From Folioceros fuciformis (lineage: Eukaryota): a stretch of 57,519 bases of DNA. Below the pieces are notes generated by a model. The model saw only the letters and a list, made by a program, of their open reading frames with translations. It searched no databases and was not told the DNA's origin. Location: assembly GCA_049999805.1 (NCBI GenBank), contig JBNGIO010005227.1, forward strand, positions 1 through 57,519, written 5' to 3'. Positions 16,199 through 56,109 of this stretch are shown one piece after another. The position numbers and the translations under genes are program-made. Within the stretch, counting starts at the first letter, position 1. Every line of letters begins with the position of its first letter.

Positions 16199-16598
16199 NN
16201 NNNNNNNNNNNNNNNNNNNNNNNNNNNNNNNNNNNNNNNNNNNNNNNNNNNNNNNNNNNNNNNNNNNNNNNNNNNNNNNNNNNNNNNNNNNNNNNNNNNN
16301 NNNNNNNNNNNNNNNNNNNNNNNNNNNNNNNNNNNNNNNNNNNNNNNNNNNNNNNNNNNNNNNNNNNNNNNNNNNNNNNNNNNNNNNNNNNNNNNNNNNN
16401 NNNNNNNNNNNNNNNNNNNNNNNNNNNNNNNNNNNNNNNNNNNNNNNNNNNNNNNNNNNNNNNNNNNNNNNNNNNNNNNNNNNNNNNNNNNNNNNNNNNN
16501 NNNNNNNNNNNNNNNNNNNNNNNNNNNNNNNNNNNNNNNNNNNNNNNNNNNNNNNNNNNNNNNNNNNNNNNNNNNNNNNNNNNNNNNNNNNNNNNNNN
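16199..16598. other. assembly gap (400 N); other gaps at 1387-1396, 2353-2362 and 27388-27487
   Basis: N runs in the sequence. Confidence 1.
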
Positions 16599-19143: not shown

Positions 19144-20675
19144 ATGGTGGCCATGGAATCTCTCTTGATGGAGGGCCTGCGCCGGGGTCTTGCCGCCCGG
19201 CCGTCTGCCTTCTTCAGGCTCTGCCACTTCCCCTTACCGAAAGCCGCGAGGCCCGTTGGGCAGGGCTGCCAGCTGGGGTCGTGGAATCGGGGCCGGGGTT
19301 TAGTGCAGCAGCGGAGGAAGCTGAGCTCGGGTGCTGCTTCTGCGGCTTTGGAGATTGAGCTGGTGAGGGATCGTGCGTCTGAATTGGGCCGGCTTCTGGA
19401 TTCTGTGGTGTTGCCTTGCCTTGTTCTCTGGCTGAGAGAGATGGAGGGATAAACAGGTGCCGTGCCTGGTGGACAATTACGCGTACATCTTGCATGATGC
19501 CGCGTCAGGTGTGACTGGAGTGGTGGATCCGTCGGCGGCTGGGCCAGTGATCAGGGCGCTGAAACAGAAAGGCTGGAGCTTGTCCTTCATCCTCAACACG
19601 CACCACCACTGGGATCATACAGGAGGGAACGTGGATTTGAAGCGGGAATACGAAGCCAAGGTCAGGCAGGCAGACTTCTGGGTTGAGGTGTTCCGTGCCT
19701 AGGGTCCACGACTGGCTGGCCCTAAGGGTAGCTAGGTTGCGTGCAATTGTGCGCTCCGTAGGTTGTCGGCCCCAAGGCTGATGAGGGACGGATACCGGGT
19801 ATCGACCTAGGGTTACGAGATGGTGAAACATGGAGGTTCGGGACGCAGGAGATGCAAGTGCTGCTCACACCTGGCCATACTCGAGGTGCAATGCCGTCCT
19901 TTGCTGTGCCTCTGAACCCTTTCACTGCACTGACTGGCGCGTTGTTAGGGCGGTACTGAGATGCCTTTGTTCCAGGCCACGTGAGCTTCTACTTTCCGGA
20001 ATCCAGAGCCGTCTTCACAGGCGACACTCTGTTCTCGATCGGATGTGGCAGGTTGTTCGAGGGTTCAGCGGACCAGGTCACTTCGTCTCTCCTTGTTTGT
20101 TTTATCCCAGTCTCCCTTTCTGTACGTTCATGAGTTTCACCACAGACTGCTCTAACCGTGCTTCCTCTGGGTCTCAGATGTGGGCATCCTTGACAAAGAT
20201 TGCCGCACTGCCAGACGATACCCTAATCTACTGTGGCCATGAGTACACTCTGGTGAGTTGCTGTTGTCTGCATTTGCCTTGGGCTTTTGCCTCGTTGGGC
20301 GGATGTGTGTGGTTTCCTTGACCTGTGTGCACGGGTTGAATGAAGCAGTCGAATGCAAAGTTTGCTCTGTCGGTGGAACCACAGAACCGTGCTCTTGCTT
20401 CTCATTTTGAGAAAATAAAGGAACTCCGCAACAACAGCCGCCCCACGGTACGTGTTCTTGGTCAACCTATGCTTCGTGAATTGCAGATGCCTCATCTGCC
20501 ATTGACGTGTTTCTTGTTCCCGACGCAGATACCCACCACTTTGGAAGAGGAGAAATCATTCAATCCTTTTCTGAGACCTTCTAGTGTAGAGTTGCGGAAA
20601 TCCCTGCACCTGCCTGAAACGGCGAGCGATGCTCAAGTGTTCGCAGCTGTCAGGACTGCCAAGGACAAGTACTGA
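19144..20675 (+). CDS. GLX2: hydroxyacylglutathione hydrolase (glyoxalase II) with organellar transit peptide
   Basis: [14 protein letters not shown], the metallo-beta-lactamase motif [36 protein letters not shown] and [16 protein letters not shown], over several GT-AG introns. Confidence 0.95.
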
Positions 20676-20952
20676 GGCTCTCAACTCAACACGCGCCTAT
20701 TGGCTTTTCGCAAGATACGCGGCACGTCGGACTACTGGAAATTTCTAACTTCCGGTGGGGGAAGGCGGAGGAATCCTTCCTTTAAGAAGGGGAAAATAAA
20801 TAATTAGAAAGGAAAATATGGAGATCAGCTCTCCTGGGTCCCATGGAAACTTTTAAGTTTTGGTCGGGAATCGAGTGGCCAGCCGTATGGGGAGAAGTCA
20901 CACCTTTTTAAAGGAAGTGGAGAAAAGAGACCTTGAAGGACGAAGTGTAAGT

Positions 20953-20956
20953 AAAA
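20953..20956 (-). terminator. candidate Pol III terminator (T4) of the tRNA-like gene
   Basis: TTTT on the minus strand, 7 nt after the discriminator base. Confidence 0.4.
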
Positions 20957-20963
20957 TTACATT

Positions 20964-21040
20964 GGGGCGCTGCGAGACTCGAACTCGCGTCCTCTGGACG
21001 ATTCGATTAATCCAGCGTCATACCCCTAGACCAAGCGCCC
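20964..21040 (-). tRNA. tRNA-Pro-like gene with an aberrant 12-nt anticodon loop (no Pro anticodon)
   Basis: The reverse complement folds as GGGCGCT TG GTCT AGGGGTA TGAC G CTGGA TTAATCGAATCG TCCAG AGGAC GCGAG TTCGAGT CTCGC AGCGCCC C. Acceptor, anticodon and T stems pair perfectly. A box TGGTCTAGGGG and B box GAGTTCGAGTC are present. Confidence 0.85.
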
Positions 21041-21395
21041 TCGGCTTTACGATGTGCACATCGTGGGAAATAAATGTTTAAAAAATATTCAATTTTTGGA
21101 CCCAGAGGTGCGAAGAAGAAAGAATTCTCATAGGATTGCCATGAAATGTAGTTCTTTCGAAGAGGTAGAGGACAAGTACCAGAAGCAAACCAAAGACGCA
21201 CATATGACCGCAGAAACGACTCAAATTGAGTTGCTCAGGCAGTCTGGGGTTAACTTGCCCGGATGTGCGGGCAGGGTGCTCTAGGTCGAAACCGAAACCC
21301 TGGAGAGGCTGAACTCTTTGGGAGGCCGCATCGACGGGAAGGAGGAAGGACGGGGTCGGGGCTGACGGGCAGGGAGCTGCCGTCGGAGGGGCGGT

Positions 21396-23610
21396 ATGGC
21401 GTACGATAGCTATGGCGGAGGGCGGGGGGACTATGCAGGCGGCTACGATGACACATACGATGATCGCCCCGAGTTCCGGGATAGCTACCGGGACATTCAG
21501 CAGCAGGATCCTGGATTCGACAGCCCCAACTACGTGCCGGATGTGGTGAAAACCTTTGTGACCTATCTCTACAGGCACATCCGGGAGAAGAATACCTACG
21601 AGATTCATCAGATGTACGAGGGAAGCTTCCAGAAGCTGAGCGAGCGCATGTTCAAGCAGTCGTACTGGCCGTCCGTGGAGGCCATAGCTCCGCTGGTGGA
21701 CAATGACCATGTCTTTTGCCTGCTTTACCGAGAGATGTGGTTCCGCCACGTCTATGCCAGGCTCTCTCCCACCCTGGAGCAGAGATGCGAGTCCTGGGAT
21801 AATTACTGCGGTCTCTTCACTGTCGTGCTGCATGGAAATGTCAATATGCAGCTGCCGAACCAGTGGCTGTGGGATATGGTGGACGAGTTCATCTACCAGT
21901 TCCAGTCCTTTTGTCAGTACCGCGCCAAGCTTAAGAACAAGACCGAGCATGAGCTGCAGCTGTTGAGGCAGTACGAGGAGGTAACGTTTTTGTTGTCGGT
22001 GTTGTGACTTTTTTGTGTTTTTGCGGCATTAGGGTAGTGGTGAGCTCCAAGTCTCAGTCTATGCTTTGTTTCCTGTCCAGGTGTGGAACGTGTACGCAGT
22101 TTTGAACTACTTGCAGGCTTTGATTGACAAGTCCGCGATCCTTCAAGTTTTGGAGGATGAGAAGGACGGCCCTGGCCCTTTCACTATTAACGACGGTTAT
22201 GATTACGAGGGAGTTGGCTCCAATGTGCTGCGGGTTTTGGGGTATTTTAGTATCATTGGCCTTCTACGAGTTCACTGTCTGCTTGGGGATTACCAGAGTG
22301 GTCTTCGCAATCTGGCCCCAATAGATTTGGGTCAGTCTAGCGTGTGGAACAACAACATTGGGTCCCACATTACCACAATTTACTACTACGGGTTTGCCAA
22401 CATGATGCTAAGACGGTGGGGATAAAGTGTTGCGTGTTGCTTGCTGTCGCCCCTGCCTGTGCATGCTTGCTTACAGTCGCTCGATTTTTTGTCTGCAGCT
22501 ACACAGATGCAATCGGGGCTTTCAATCAGATCCTGCTGTACCTGATCAAGACGAAGCAGTTTCACCAACGCTTGTCACAGGCTGATCAGATTCATAAGAA
22601 AAACGAGCAGATGTATGCATTGCTCGCAATCTGCCTTTCCCTTTCGCCTCATGGAAAGCTTGTGGAAGAGAATGTGAACAACCAGCTGAGGGAGAAGTAC
22701 GCTGAGAAGATGTTACGGATGCAGAGAAGTGACGAGACTATTTATGATGAGCTCTTTTCGTATGCTTGTCCCAAGTTCATTACCCCTTCTCCACCCAACT
22801 ATGATGAGCCACTGGTCAATTACAACCAGGTCAGTGACACGTCTTTTAGGCCATTCCTGTTATCCCCGTCGTTCCTCGATTGCCTTTCTCCAATAGAATG
22901 TCTCTTGAGCTGTTTGGTGTGCAGGATGCGTACAGGTTGCAGTTAAAGCTTTTCCTGTCTGAAGTACGGCAGCAGCAACTGCTTCCAAGTATTCGTAACT
23001 ATCTCAAGCTCTACACCACCATCTCCATCGCCAAATTAGCATCTTTTATGGAAATAGACGAGCCCACTCTGAGGTTTGCAATTGCACCCTGCCCTGCATT
23101 ACATTCGACGTGTGGTGTGTGTGCTATGATGTTGACCATATTGGATTTGTACTCGGGGAAAGGCTTGCTAAAGGTAGTCGTTGAGTTGACAGGATGGCAT
23201 TGCTTACCTACAAACATAAAACACACGTTATCGACGAGGATGGCAGTATCTTATCCACTGCGGACGTGGACTTCTATATAGATGAGGTAGGGCTTCATGA
23301 ATTTTGAGTTTCAAAATTCGTTGTCCTTGTTCTTGCGAGTCCAGTTGCCCAGGCTGTAGGTCTTCCGTCTGTTTGCAGGACATGGTCCACATCGCCGATT
23401 TGAAAGTGACGAAGCGTTTTGGTGATATGTTCATTCGGCATATTGCAAAGGTATCCTCTTTCGTGGCTAATGCATGTTGGTACTATGCTTATGAATCCGT
23501 GTGGGGCTTGGTGGACCGTTTACAGACGAGTCCTTTGGCTATCTGTGCAGTGTGAGGAAATAGTAGAAGATTTGGGACGGATTCGGTCATCGGAGGGAGC
23601 AGCATTTTGA
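21396..23610 (+). CDS. eIF3L: eukaryotic translation initiation factor 3 subunit L
   Basis: [89 protein letters not shown]; multi-exon. Confidence 0.96.
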
Positions 23611-27011: not shown

Positions 27012-28231
27012 ATGGGGAAGACGTCGCATCCCAGTTCCTGGCTTGGATGGTCCTGGGAATTCGAGGACATGGTGCAGCAGCAACCTCGGGGAAGTGAAGT
27101 GAAGTCGGAGGCCGCCCCGGATTCACGCCGGGCCAGATTCCGGATGCAAGCGGGGCCGTCCCGAGAGCAGATGCAGGCAGACCGCATCCTGAGCATCGTC
27201 CGCAGCATCCCCCCACCCGCCGCGCTGCATTTCCTGGCACCCGGCGGGGAATTTCGCTCAGGAAACGGGGCGGCATGGCCGTTCGCGGCTGTGCACGGCT
27301 TCCCGGCTCAGACCTGGCTGGAGATCGACTGGGAGGCGATACCAGCCAGCGCGGACCCGGCGCGCGGGGGCGGGTATAAGCCGGAGCNNNNNNNNNNNNN
27401 NNNNNNNNNNNNNNNNNNNNNNNNNNNNNNNNNNNNNNNNNNNNNNNNNNNNNNNNNNNNNNNNNNNNNNNNNNNNNNNNNNNNNNNAGGAGCCGGGTGC
27501 GGCACATGTGCCGAGGAGAGAGGAAACAGTGGCAGGTGAGCGGGATCGCGGGAATTCTCAAGTCCCTGGAGTTGGAGGAGGGATCCGTGGTGGTCGACTT
27601 CGGGTGTGGGTCCGGAGCGCTCACGCTTCCGCTGGCGGCCGTCTTCCCGGCCTTGGTTTTTGTCGGAGTGGATCTGAAACGGAAGAGCGTAGAGCTACTG
27701 CGGCAGCGGGCAGCGGCGGGAGGGTTGCCAAATGTGCGGGCGTGGTGCGGGAGTATCCAAAGTTTCAGGCAGCCGTTCCAGGCCTGCGTCGCTCTGCATG
27801 CTTGCGGATCCGCCACGGACATGGCCCTGGTGCAAGCGCTGGACAGGGCGTCCGCTTACGTCGTGTCGCCATGCTGCGTGGGGAAGTTGCAGCTAGAGCG
27901 TTGCGGAGGAGTGGCCCCGCTTGTGTACCCTAGGTCGCAGTGGCTTCGGTCTGCCATCTCCAGTGAGGACTTTTTGTTTCTCGCTCGGTCCGCGGACTGG
28001 AGCAGCTATGACCGGGACTGCACCGACAGCCAGTTGCATGCTCTATGCAAGGCCGTTGTGGAGCTGGATCGGAACCAGGCAGCCGTAGAGCGGGACTACG
28101 TAACTTCAATTTTCTCGCTGCCGAATCAGGCCGCCGGGGTCGTTGGCATCAGTCATATTCTGGTGGGAAGGCCGGATGATGAATTGCAGGGTCTCTCAGC
28201 TAGAACGCGGAGGAGAAAGCTTTCTCCCTGA
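27012..28231 (+). CDS. class I SAM-dependent methyltransferase (GSTCD C-terminal / Methyltransf_32-like); spans the 100-N gap at 27388-27487, start uncertain
   Basis: VVDFGCGSGALTLPLA, VGVD, VALHACGSATD and VVSPCCVGK motifs; upstream IDWEAIPASADP..G. Confidence 0.8.
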
Positions 28232-52362: not shown

Positions 52363-55296
52363 TCACGGTCGACCCTGACAACTGCAACAACCTTCAGTGA
52401 ATCGATGCACACGGTACCCATCCCTCACAACAATGTCTCTCTGTTCAAGCCGTGACATGATCTCCGTGGAACTGTGGCAGTCACTGCACATGCGTAGATT
52501 CTTCGTTACCACAAGAGGTGTCCCACTCGGAGTGTTCAACAGACCAAACGCTAAGGCTAACTTCTCAGCATGCCCACAAAGCACATCTTCCTTTTCCTTC
52601 TCAGAGACTGGCTTCAACACCAATTTTGTCTGAGGTACGTGGCCTCCTTCCTGCTTCACACGGGCATTCGTGCTCACTACCTTAAGAGCAAGATCATCTC
52701 TTTTCTCCCCCACGGCAAATGTATGTACCTGCTTCTTCACCTCAATCGTGGCCACTGCAGGTTTCTTGTTAGCTCCTACTGCCCTTCTCTGTGTTTCAAT
52801 CCTATCTACATCGGTCCACATACCTGCATCTGCGTAGGCATTAGCCATGAGCACATAGGCGGACGCCATTTGAGGGTCCAGCCTAACAATGCTTTCAAAA
52901 CACCATACAGCCCTCTCTATATCCCCGTGATTTTTGCAGGCATTCAACAAAGTCATCAAGCCAACTGCGTTACTCTGGCCCTCACTTGATAATAGCATCT
53001 TCTCTGCCTCATCCAAAAGGCCAGCACGCCCCAGAAGATCGATCATACAGGTGTAATGCTCAATAGTAGGTTTGATGCCATGTTGTTCGGCCATGGAATG
53101 AAAGTGTTTGCGTCCCTCGTTGACCAGTCCCTCATGACTGCATGCTACTAGAAGGCAAGTAAAAGTAGCATCATCAGGCTGAACACCAGCAACTAACATC
53201 TTCTCGAAACAAGCTAGTGCCTTGTGACCTTCATCGCAGGCACCATAGCCAGCAATCAGGGCATTCCATGTCACCGCGTCCTTTGTGGCCATGCTGTCAA
53301 AAACTTGGCAAGCATTTTTCAGATCGCCACATTTGGCATACATGTCCACCAGGCAGTTGCCCACCACAACGTCCTCCAGCAGTCCTCTTTCAACAATCTG
53401 TGAGTGCAGTTGCATACCCTTCTGCAAGGCACCAGAGCTTGCACAGGCCTTTAGAAGGCAAGCAAAAGTAAAATGGTCAGCTAAAATCAGCCCCTCCTGC
53501 TCCATTTGTCCATATACGGCAAGCGCCTCATGTCCAAGCTCTTGCTGTGAATACCCCGCAATCAGGGCATTCCATGTCACCACATTCTTTGAGGTCATGC
53601 TATCAAGGACCTGGCGTGCATCTTTCATTTCACCACATTTGGCATACATGTCCACCAGGCAGGTGCCCACAACCACATCATCCAGCAGTCCTCTATCCAC
53701 AATCTGGGAGTGCAGGTGCCTCCCCTCCTGTAAGGCGCCAGTACTTGCACAGGCCTTCAGAAGGCATGTAAAAGTAACATGGTCAGCCAAAATGAGGCCA
53801 GCCTCCTCCATTTGTCCATACACAACAAGCGCCTCACGTCCAAGCCCTTGCTGGGAATACCCAGCCATCAGCACCGTCCATGTCACCACATCCTTTGTGG
53901 CCATGCCGTCAAAAACCTTGCGCGCATCTTCCAGTTCCCCACATTTGACATACATGTCCACCAGGCAGTTGCCCAACACTACGTTATCCAGCAGTCCTCT
54001 TTCGACAATCTGTGTGTGCAGTTGCATGCCCTTCTGCAAGGCGCCAGTGCTTGCACATGCCTTCAAAAGGCAAGCGAATGTAACATGGTCAGCCAAAACA
54101 AGGCCTGCCTCCTCCATTTGTCCATACACAAGAAGCGCCTCGTGACCAAGTCCTTGCTGTGCATACCCAGCGATCAAGGTGTTCCATGTCACAACATCCT
54201 TTGTGGCCATGCTGTCAAAGACCTGGCGTGCGTCTTCCAGCTTCCCACATTTCGCATACCCAGCAATCATGGCATTCCATGTCACCACATCCTTTCTGGT
54301 CATGCTGTCAAAAACCTGGCGTGCATCTTTCAGCTCGCCACATTTTGCATACATGTCCAACAGGCAGTTGCCAACAAACAAGTTAGTAGGAATTCCACTC
54401 TGCACCACATCACGGTGCACTTTCCTGCCAGAATCCAAGTCGGAAGCAAATGCACAAGCTTGAAGGACAGCTACAAAGACGTGAGCGTCCGCCTTCACTC
54501 CTGACCTACACATGTCATCATACAGTCGTATGGCGTCATTGGGTTTCCCATGCTTTGCATATGCGGAGATTATGGAAGACCACATGAAGGCATCCGGTTT
54601 CCCAACTCTGGTGAGCACATCCATGGCCTCCTCTAACCTCCCTCCGCATGCGTACATGCGCAATATATGGTTCCCCAAGTACGCATTGGACTCGTACCCA
54701 AGTTTGACACTGAGATCATGAACCCGTCGTCCCACAACCAAATCCTTCTTCGCTGTACAAAGTTTCAGCACAGTGCAAACCAGAGACGGAGAAACAGCAG
54801 AGTCCGTGAGAGCCAGAGACTCCAGGGCTTTAACGGCCTCGGACAGCTTCCCCTGCTGACATAACATGCTCACAGTGACGGCAGAAGCGACGCCCATTTC
54901 CACCTGCATATCCAAGAAAACGAGCTTCTCATCAACCCAACCAGGCTTGAACGCACTGTTCAACCACAGCACCTCCCCGGATCCCTTACGCCGGAAGTCA
55001 GGCGAACGGGAGCCCTTCTTGTCTCGTCGGTTATCCCACCACATGGTAGGGTCCAGAAAATATTGTTCCCACAATTGCTCCTGCTCCTGGCGACGACCAT
55101 CGTTGGAAATCTCTTCCCCACCCACAAATTTCCTTGGCTGTGGAAGTGCTGGGCTCCTTGCAGTGCTGCACCTGGAGGCTTTGCTAGCCGGGGCTCGAGT
55201 CCCTAAGACGCTTTTAGCAGGAGCTCCCGGTAGAATGCCTGTACACATTCCAATTCGTGGGGTCGACAACAAATCCGGTTGCCATACTGTGGCCAT
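52363..55296 (-). CDS. PLS-class PPR RNA-editing factor with N-terminal PDF (OSB-type) motif and C-terminal DYW:KP / GRP deaminase-like domain
   Basis: Intronless, ~977 aa from the ATG at 55296. Order: transit peptide; WWDNR..PDF motif; about 19 P/L/S repeats ending P2-L2-S2; E1/E2; KKPAVATIEV, HAEKLALAFGL, CSDCH; terminal CSCQGRP*. Confidence 0.95.
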   Translation of the reverse strand: MATVWQPDLLSTPRIGMCTGILPGAPAKSVLGTRAPASKASRCSTARSPALPQPRKFVGGEEISNDGRRQEQEQLWEQYFLDPTMWWDNRRDKKGSRSPDFRRKGSGEVLWLNSAFKPGWVDEKLVFLDMQVEMGVASAVTVSMLCQQGKLSEAVKALESLALTDSAVSPSLVCTVLKLCTAKKDLVVGRRVHDLSVKLGYESNAYLGNHILRMYACGGRLEEAMDVLTRVGKPDAFMWSSIISAYAKHGKPNDAIRLYDDMCRSGVKADAHVFVAVLQACAFASDLDSGRKVHRDVVQSGIPTNLFVGNCLLDMYAKCGELKDARQVFDSMTRKDVVTWNAMIAGYAKCGKLEDARQVFDSMATKDVVTWNTLIAGYAQQGLGHEALLVYGQMEEAGLVLADHVTFACLLKACASTGALQKGMQLHTQIVERGLLDNVVLGNCLVDMYVKCGELEDARKVFDGMATKDVVTWTVLMAGYSQQGLGREALVVYGQMEEAGLILADHVTFTCLLKACASTGALQEGRHLHSQIVDRGLLDDVVVGTCLVDMYAKCGEMKDARQVLDSMTSKNVVTWNALIAGYSQQELGHEALAVYGQMEQEGLILADHFTFACLLKACASSGALQKGMQLHSQIVERGLLEDVVVGNCLVDMYAKCGDLKNACQVFDSMATKDAVTWNALIAGYGACDEGHKALACFEKMLVAGVQPDDATFTCLLVACSHEGLVNEGRKHFHSMAEQHGIKPTIEHYTCMIDLLGRAGLLDEAEKMLLSSEGQSNAVGLMTLLNACKNHGDIERAVWCFESIVRLDPQMASAYVLMANAYADAGMWTDVDRIETQRRAVGANKKPAVATIEVKKQVHTFAVGEKRDDLALKVVSTNARVKQEGGHVPQTKLVLKPVSEKEKEDVLCGHAEKLALAFGLLNTPSGTPLVVTKNLRMCSDCHSSTEIMSRLEQRDIVVRDGYRVHRFTEGCCSCQGRP

Positions 55297-56109
55297 CGCT
55301 GCTGTCGGAGGAGCATGGAGAGCACAGGACAGGACAGGACACGCCAATCGTCCTCTCCTCGCGCACCGAATTCACTGCACCCAGGCCAGGGTTGATGTAC
55401 AGGACTGAGTGACCCGGATGGTGAATGGGCGTGGAGTGCCTTCACATCTGCTGAACACCATAGCGAACAGTTAACCGCTTCAAAAGACATTCGAGCTTCA
55501 TTTTGTGTTCATCTTTGGGATATTTTGTGTTTGGGTATATTTTTAGTACCCATGGGCATATGCTACTTGGCAAGGACGGAACAAAATGCACACTTCATTC
55601 CAAGAAAGGAAGGGATGCTTTTAAATAATTGAATGTATAAAAATTATATAATGAGATGAAAGAAACTTAAGACAAGGGATGATTAACATAGTAACCTTGA
55701 TTAATTTTGCTTCATTTGAAGAAAGAAAAAATATGGATGAAAAGAAATATTACGGGTACAAGAAGAGTCATTATTATGAACTAAAAGTGGGTTTATACGA
55801 GTTTATACGAGCTCTTACAGTGCTCTTGGAACAAAGAAACCACAAAGTGAACAACACACCACATCTAAGTTCTTTCTAACAGTCATTGGCGCTAGGATTT
55901 GAAATCCTACTTCTCTAGGATGATTTGCTAAGTGATGAATAACAACTAAAAAATCCTAGAGTCAATCCAACAAGATGAACTCCCAACAATGGAGGGGAGC
56001 TTTTCAATCCAATAAGATGGCCATATGTGGATGAGGAAGCTCCACAAAGTTTGGTAGAACTGGAACGTGAAAAGGAGTTGCACCCGAGAAGAAGTTGCTT
56101 TTGGGTTGA

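Follow-up and report, generated by a model that had tools for sequence, protein, structure and literature searches.

The window, meaning the whole stretch of 57,519 bases that was analysed, carries a glyoxalase II gene on the plus strand (Lactamase_B and HAGH_C domains, stop at 20675) and, to the right of it on the same strand, the beginning of an eIF3L gene, with an open frame from 21396 that carries a Paf67 domain. Antisense to both of these genes, in the ~450-bp spacer, is a tRNA-shaped gene which lies 24 bp past the end (20940) of an RNA-like contig of the glyoxalase II gene and ~350 bp before the eIF3L reading frame. A 290-codon frame on the minus strand (21078-21950) matches no family and is found opposite an eIF3L exon; it is treated as non-coding. 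The window also carries an LRR receptor kinase gene, interrupted by a 400-base run of N, and at 52363-55347 on the minus strand an uninterrupted 994-codon PPR frame with an E motif and a DYW deaminase domain, an architecture known from organellar RNA-editing factors of land plants. DYW-type PPR and LRR receptor kinase genes are presumably land-plant markers. Assembly gaps, seen as runs of N, are located at 16199-16598, 1387-1396, 2353-2362 and 27388-27487.

ARAGORN returned the tRNA-shaped gene as its sole tRNA call in the whole 57,519-base window, 77 nt in length and read from 21040 to 20964; the original prediction had the coordinates right and left the strand, which is minus, unstated. In a 401-base search the gene matched the Rfam tRNA model RF00005 over positions 1-71 of 71 with a score of 53.9 bits (E 5.1e-11), well above the gathering score of 29. 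The gene is unlisted when Rfam is run at the gathering threshold over the whole 57,519-base window, and because the 401-base search passes the same threshold, this is taken to be a loss in the speed filters and not an absence. Dropping out in the fast Rfam filters is something that can happen to tRNAs with an enlarged loop. The positions of the gene, its parts and its flanking elements are collected in Table 1.

Table 1. Features of the tRNA-like gene and its flanks (positions are those of the window; signed positions are relative to the gene).
Feature	Position	Strand	Basis or remark
tRNA-like gene, proline-type body, 77 nt	20964..21040	-	ARAGORN; RF00005 53.9 bits, E 5.1e-11
D arm with A-box region	21017..21033	-	17-mer TTGGTCTAGGGGTATGA at 21018-21034
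Anticodon stem, 5' strand CUGGA	21011..21015	-	cloverleaf partner 20994-20998; predicted alternative-fold partner is the 5' half of the D arm
12-nt loop in the anticodon position, UUAAUCGAAUCG	20999..21010	-	sequence; DNA contigs
Anticodon stem, 3' strand UCCAG	20994..20998	-	alignment and part-by-part split
T arm GCGAG-UUCGAGU-CUCGC with B box	20972..20988	-	single occurrence in window; L023 tRNA-Pro(AGG) has the same T stem
TTTT, candidate Pol III terminator	20953..20956, +8..+11	-	sequence; terminator role putative
Second downstream TTTT	20923-20926, +38..+41	-	sequence
Perfect 16-bp palindrome ACGATGTGCACATCGT	21049..21064, -9..-24	.	once in window
A/T-rich stretch, possible TATA-like upstream element	21068..21097, -28..-57	-	sequence; function putative

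All four stems of the tRNA model (7/4/5/5) are present. The acceptor stem (GGGCGCU/AGCGCCC) is paired at 7/7 positions and its 5' strand is followed by U8 and G9; the D stem (GUCU/UGAC) has 3 pairs and a U13.U22 mismatch, encloses the D loop AGGGGUA and is followed by G26. The anticodon stem (CUGGA/UCCAG) and the T stem (GCGAG/CUCGC) are each fully paired at 5/5 positions, the variable loop is AGGAC, the T loop UUCGAGU and the discriminator base C. U13.U22 is the only non-standard stem pair and is common to 8/8 of the reference tRNA-Pro genes described below. The core bases U8, A14, G18, G19, G53, U54, U55, C56, A58 and C61 are all in place, and both Pol III boxes, A and B, are intact. ARAGORN, RF00005 and the sequence itself therefore agree with the complete cloverleaf, A and B boxes, C discriminator and downstream T4 that had been described from the letters. 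Upstream, the palindrome could be a candidate protein-binding site, serving either the tRNA gene or the promoter of eIF3L close by, and the TATA-like reading of the A/T-rich stretch is drawn from the upstream regions of plant tRNA genes. A scan for bacterial-type promoters and terminators, a type of scan unsuited to a Pol III gene, found nothing relevant.

To place the body of the gene, the genome_contigs collection was scanned with its D-arm motif, which gave 22 loci, 6 of them with eukaryote-type tRNA genes (L013, L015, L020, L023, L024 and L026). The tRNA genes of these six, some of them forming dense multi-isotype arrays, lie in records labelled as bacterial MAGs (Bacteroidota, Pseudomonadota, SUP05, Bdellovibrionales and others), for instance 10 tRNA genes in the 1,443 bp of L015 and 24 in the 4,456 bp of L020, and they look like eukaryotic DNA that was mis-binned. 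The gene was aligned with 64 tRNA genes, taken from the D-arm-motif loci and from two loci of a scan with its anticodon stem, variable loop and T arm, a set that is biased in that part of it was chosen by the D-arm pattern of the gene itself. The top two of the 64 are tRNA-Pro genes of L023, with alignment scores of 88 (57/72 bases) and 78, and all 12 eukaryote-type tRNA-Pro genes fall within the top 25; the remaining tRNA-Pro genes score 59-67 and are not clearly set apart from Leu-AAG (61) and some archaeal Val and Gly genes. Judged by this sequence likeness the body is proline-type, as had been proposed.

The tRNA-Pro genes of L013, L015, L020 and L024 share the 17-mer TTGGTCTAGGGGTATGA (positions 7 to 23) with the gene exactly; in the tRNA-Pro(AGG) of L023 (L023:92-163, minus strand), T replaces G at one of the 17 positions. 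When compared by eye, the same 17-mer is seen in the human tRNA-Pro sequence that PMC12217144 gives in its Methods and PMC5159642 in a figure legend. The human tRNA-Gln printed in PMC5159642 has the same 5-bp anticodon stem as the gene, a five-pair match that may be due to chance.

Pair by pair, the stems were compared with 11 tRNA-Pro genes, of which 8 are distinct; a 78-nt variant from L023 and one bacterial tRNA-Pro were left out. The gene differs from these references on both sides of a pair at 4 pairs (L023) or at 8-9 pairs (the others), on one side only at a single pair, where G10.U25 has become G10-C25, and no pair is broken. Unique to the gene against the 8 references are C25, G26, G29-C41, A31-U39, A47 and the whole loop. 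At C25, G26, A31-U39 and A47 the references are constant in 8/8 cases and the gene is changed without loss of any pair, such that A31-U39 stands where all 8 have C31-G39, and G26 and A47 stand where they have U.

The closest of the references, tRNA-Pro(AGG) L023:92-163, is a normal tRNA-Pro gene that also carries the T stem GCGAG/CUCGC and GGG...CCCC acceptor ends, and it shares with the gene the discriminator C, U13.U22 and the length of the variable loop. Since L023 has this T stem and these acceptor ends, and since acceptor stems vary among the reference tRNA-Pro genes, most of the compensated differences can, on sequence comparison, be ordinary lineage variation among working tRNA-Pro genes, inherited from working ancestors.

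The most radical departure from the references is in the loop. All 8 distinct tRNA-Pro genes have the seven-base loop UUAGGGU or UUUGGGU (anticodon AGG or UGG), in contrast to the 12 nt of UUAAUCGAAUCG, in which no GG is present and hence no NGG anticodon (G35, G36) can be found. The sequence confirms the earlier description of the loop as TT followed by AATCG twice, with the two AAUCG units of the RNA at 21008-21004 and 21003-20999. An exact 5+5 tandem has a probability of P = 0.0024 in a random 12-mer of the window's composition, and because it arises by chance so seldom, the repeat points to a duplication event. The loop occurs once in the window, even with up to one mismatch allowed; no second copy that could have served as a nearby source was found in the window, and TRF detected no tandem array around the loop within it.

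As the unit is repeated, removal of any one AAUCG leaves the same loop, UUAAUCG, with the anticodon AAU followed by C37 and G38, which bears out the AAT anticodon that was foreseen for the one-copy form. That this loop has exactly the canonical 7 nt suggests a 72-nt gene that was hit by a recent 5-bp slippage duplication. The one-copy loop is still not that of a normal decoder, because it has a pyrimidine at position 37 and sits on a proline-type body with discriminator C. The gene as it stands has 12 nt in place of a 7-nt loop with U33 and a purine at 37, and its one-copy version has C37. With introns allowed, ARAGORN calls the gene tRNA-Ile(aat), with 72 bases and a 5-nt intron; without introns it calls Asp(atc), by forcing a poor 3-pair stem with two mismatches, and on account of this stem the Asp(atc) call was rejected. 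When the anticodon arm is folded in isolation, a 6-pair stem with an open loop of 10 nt is obtained.

Slippage within the loop of a tRNA gene is also seen on the 1,031-bp contig of L023 that bears the normal tRNA-Pro(AGG): the D loop of a tRNA-Pro(TGG) gene there, likewise of eukaryote type (L023:625-702, minus strand), contains a tandem insert of 6 nt made of TAG repeats.

An assembly error in the loop had been named as one way in which the observation could fail. The contigs of the DNA runs X1 and X2 have 0 other letters and 0 gaps across the gene, and the contig of X4 is equal in length there, being too diverged to align within the GC-rich gene; all three derive from the same sample, possibly the one that gave the window itself, and no independent sample is among them. 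As far as these one-sample data reach, the loop is not an assembly slip. In X4, 24/25 listed differences from window positions 20800-21134 are C>T, and it looks like a bisulfite-converted library. For X3, from another sample and guessed to be RNA, there is one contig, and it stops at 20940, leaving 24 bases to the gene.

The other objection that had been raised, a SINE head with many degenerate copies, finds no support in the window or in the contigs of X1-X4. There is one copy of the gene and no degenerate copy in the window, and the stretch is matched at 80% likeness by 1 of the 1,277,711 contigs of X1, by 2 records of X2 and by 1 each of X3 and X4. No paralogue was found at this likeness among the contigs of X1-X4, a setting at which a 72-nt relative of ~80% identity could escape. 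Metagenomes were also scanned for this anticodon stem, variable loop and T arm, with any loop of 5-20 nt allowed; no relative came up, the matches being 7 loci, all of them unrelated prokaryote-type tRNAs or non-tRNA DNA. The exact 22-nt anticodon arm has 0 matches in genome_contigs and 0 in viral_contigs, and sequence strings of the gene were not matched in the literature searched.

Folding of the gene with ViennaRNA predicts a minimum-energy structure other than the cloverleaf, at -34.8 kcal/mol and with 0.41 of the ensemble; its z of -3.09 compares with -1.34 to -2.05 for 6 reference folds. In this predicted fold the acceptor stem and T arm are kept, and the D and anticodon stems are replaced by an 8-pair helix joining linear positions 8-15 with 26-33 and by a small hairpin, GUCC/GGAC, joining positions 42-45 with 49-52. 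The cloverleaf lies 7.8 kcal/mol above the minimum, or 6.2 if an extra U.G pair is added, in comparison to 1.7-2.8 kcal/mol in the 8 reference tRNA-Pro genes, and the mean pair probability of the anticodon stem is 0.00 compared to 0.99-1.00 in the 8 references, so that the predicted fold of the gene differs from theirs in having no anticodon stem. Deleting one AAUCG unit in silico leaves the alternative fold unchanged, with a gap of 7.1 kcal/mol; the fold would thus be due to the substitutions in the body and not to the duplication. As predicted, 6/7 of the unique body nucleotides are paired in it (C25, G29, A31, U39, C41 and A47, not G26), as is the last base of the loop, a G.

The contest between the two folds is one of in silico energies in which tertiary contacts and modifications are ignored, and these favour the L-shape in real tRNAs. 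With that qualification, the competing non-cloverleaf fold is a new result of this analysis, and it weakens the inference of selection for the cloverleaf, as the same "compensated" changes may also fit another structure. The original prediction had argued from compensated stems to selection on structure and against pseudogene decay. Its observation stands, with 4-9 both-side changes and 0 broken pairs, and its argument does not gain support, since the T stem and the acceptor ends also occur in the normal L023 tRNA-Pro(AGG) and the alternative fold is predicted to be more stable by 6.2-7.8 kcal/mol.

Taken together, it is considered moderately probable that the gene is a disabled descendant of a tRNA-Pro gene, stand-alone, single-copy and non-decoding, which belongs to the "tRNA-like" class and has no selected function of its own. 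That it reads no codons is almost certain, and of the readings first offered it is the non-decoding one that the anatomy supports best. In the proposed course of events, a nuclear tRNA-Pro gene would have given rise to a descendant without decoding ability on the minus strand of the spacer between glyoxalase II and eIF3L. Pol III transcription, trimming at both ends and CCA addition would probably still occur, since the A and B boxes, the downstream T4 and the acceptor/T-arm half are intact.

The anticodon arm, by contrast, would be disabled in three ways: it has no NGG, it would have C37 even with one AAUCG less, and its 12-nt stretch appears to have been reached through a perfect 5-bp tandem duplication of the replication-slippage type. 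Prolyl-tRNA synthetase depends on G35 and G36, and the ribosome needs a 7-nt loop, for which reasons the RNA would likely escape charging as tRNA-Pro and take no part in translation. In favour of a disabled copy, the gene is real and tRNA-shaped by both ARAGORN and Rfam, its two best matches are tRNA-Pro genes, its predicted fold gives up the D and anticodon stems, it is present once in the window, and slippage in tRNA gene loops does occur, as shown by the 6-nt tandem insert in the D loop of L023:625-702. Against it, a body in which all 20 Watson-Crick or GU stem pairs are preserved is strikingly intact for a gene in decay, five body positions that never vary in the 8 references have changed with no pair lost, and the loop departs from that of tRNA-Pro at no fewer than 4/7 positions. 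Neutral decay acting uniformly would not cluster changes in the loop; such clustering calls for one complex mutation, a parental isodecoder with differences already in place, or selection acting on the body.

In its account of the class, PlantRNA 2.0 (10.1101/2021.12.21.473619) describes "tRNA-like" pseudogenes and divergent tRNAs as common in plant nuclear genomes, and states that at such loci the two are indistinguishable without experiments. As far as that account goes, the gene resembles this class in being a cloverleaf detectable by tRNAscan or ARAGORN with no assignable working anticodon, and differs from it in being single-copy as far as seen, in its flawless body, and in a defect that does not reach beyond the anticodon arm and of which an exact tandem duplication is part. 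As a disabled copy the gene would be nothing unusual in the annotation of a plant genome, and useful as a warning, in that the ARAGORN labels Asp(atc) and Ile(aat) are both wrong for it.

A second reading, decidedly less probable, stays in contention because the body has no flaw and the changes are concentrated in the anticodon arm: a selected, non-decoding tRNA-like RNA. Here retention of the acceptor/T-arm half would let the RNA be produced and processed in the manner of a tRNA, and the enlarged loop or the alternative fold would have another use, for example in giving rise to small fragments, as a decoy for a tRNA-binding protein or as a bistable regulator. The absence of broken pairs despite 4-9 both-side differences from the 8 references is in line with this, as are the structure-preserving nature of the unique changes C25, G26, A31-U39 and A47, the z value below those of the 6 reference folds, and the pairing of all unique body nucleotides but G26, together with the last G of the loop, in the alternative fold; PlantRNA 2.0, in its treatment of the class, also allows that some "tRNA-like" genes are divergent functional RNAs. 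On the other side, no homologue or paralogue was found in the contigs at 80% likeness or in the scans of genome_contigs, viral_contigs and metagenomes, and the two identical AAUCG units look recent and not like an old conserved feature. Furthermore, much of the compensation could have been inherited from working tRNA-Pro ancestors, the T stem being common to L023, and the purine flips at positions 29 and 31 create the alternative pairing automatically, so that chance could suffice.

More tentative still is the fuller form of this proposal, in which the RNA is conserved and expressed in its lineage as a two-state, non-decoding molecule with a regulatory or fragment-precursor role, making use of the enlarged loop and a rod-like fold. 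If the gene is kept in relatives, it would be a rare stand-alone tRNA-like gene of Pol III type in a land plant with a non-decoding use, and the predicted competition between cloverleaf and rod-like fold would become worth testing. Known tRNA-like RNAs arise differently: the GUT15 tRNA-like RNA of Arabidopsis (PMC6152437) is reportedly cut from a Pol II transcript with no autonomous transcription, and mascRNA is likewise said to be a non-decoding tRNA-like RNA cut from a Pol II transcript. As far as these two are described, the gene is like them in having a tRNA-shaped body with no decoding role, and unlike them in having its own A and B boxes and T run and in lying outside the neighbouring transcript, as judged by one RNA-like contig.

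It is unlikely that the locus acts at the level of DNA, with the A and B boxes recruiting TFIIIC and Pol III as a roadblock or boundary before the eIF3L promoter and the RNA itself being irrelevant. tRNA genes have boundary activity in yeast and animals, and such an element is proposed to separate the upstream gene, which is called highly expressed, from the eIF3L promoter. The location of the gene is suited to this, between the end of the glyoxalase II RNA-like contig and the eIF3L frame, both on the plus strand, and the A and B boxes agree with the ones in working tRNA-Pro genes. The complementarity of the acceptor and anticodon stems, which lie outside the boxes, would be left unexplained, as would the odd loop, given that any working tRNA gene would serve.

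A 5-nt mini-intron is more improbable again. A splicing endonuclease would here leave a 72-nt tRNA with the loop UUAAUCG and the anticodon AAU, as in the intron-permitting ARAGORN call, and if the intron lay at 37/38, U32 could, on a reading of the sequence, form a pair with the base of the intron located three positions ahead of the 3' splice site. Pre-tRNA splicing needs an anticodon-intron helix, of which the proximal pair is critical, according to the part of PMC10485636 that concerns it. The arm of the gene folds into a 6-pair stem and a 10-nt loop with no anticodon-intron helix or bulge; the U32-A pair can be drawn, yet a plain 10-nt loop is what is predicted, and owing to the AAUCG repeat the cut site is not uniquely placed.

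As far as the accounts in PlantRNA 2.0 and PMC13578239 go, nuclear tRNA introns of land plants are at the canonical 37/38 position and limited to tRNA-Tyr and elongator tRNA-Met, with Ile-TAT as an addition in Ginkgo, and a proline-type body falls outside these isotypes. The early remark that the loop is too short for a normal tRNA intron is consistent with this: while too long for a decoding tRNA, the loop is shorter than any intron class known in land plants would require.

The gene resembles the plant precursors of tRNA-Tyr and tRNA-Met(e) in its extra anticodon-loop bases and the drawable pair of U32 to the intron; it differs from them in isotype, in having five extra bases only, in the lack of a predicted helix and in a product with C37. 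Under the identity rules, a spliced loop with C37 and G38 suits neither proline nor isoleucine when it sits on a proline-type body whose discriminator is C. No plant nuclear tRNA intron as short as 5 nt is known to the authors, and the gene is less likely to be the first land-plant tRNA with one than to be a two-state, non-decoding RNA. Neither this option nor that of a recoding or frameshifting tRNA, both of which the original prediction had listed, found positive support.

That the gene is the head of a tRNA-derived SINE, or an artefact of assembly, is highly improbable, as the weak 12-nt direct repeat (10/12 identical) that flanks a 236-bp segment containing the gene is set against one copy in the window, one X1 contig at 80% likeness, a cloverleaf that is perfect and not degenerate, and agreement in sequence or length among the contigs of three runs, though from one sample. 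The least credible reading is a decoding tRNA that reads at least four bases or shifts frame through its expanded anticodon loop: the enlarged loop, in which U-CGA-A resembles U33, an anticodon and purine 37 on direct inspection, is the only support for it, and the loops of known expanded-loop suppressors count 8 bases, seldom 9, in comparison to 12 here with no extra pairing and so no normal anticodon geometry, nor is there a synthetase identity for this combination of body and loop.

A last observation concerns the segment AAUCGAA of the loop, which is perfectly complementary to the T loop UUCGAUU found in the tRNA-Pro genes of L023 and L026, and which also resembles the B-box core (TCGAATC). 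Because TCGA is palindromic, the complementarity to UUCGAUU may well be due to chance.
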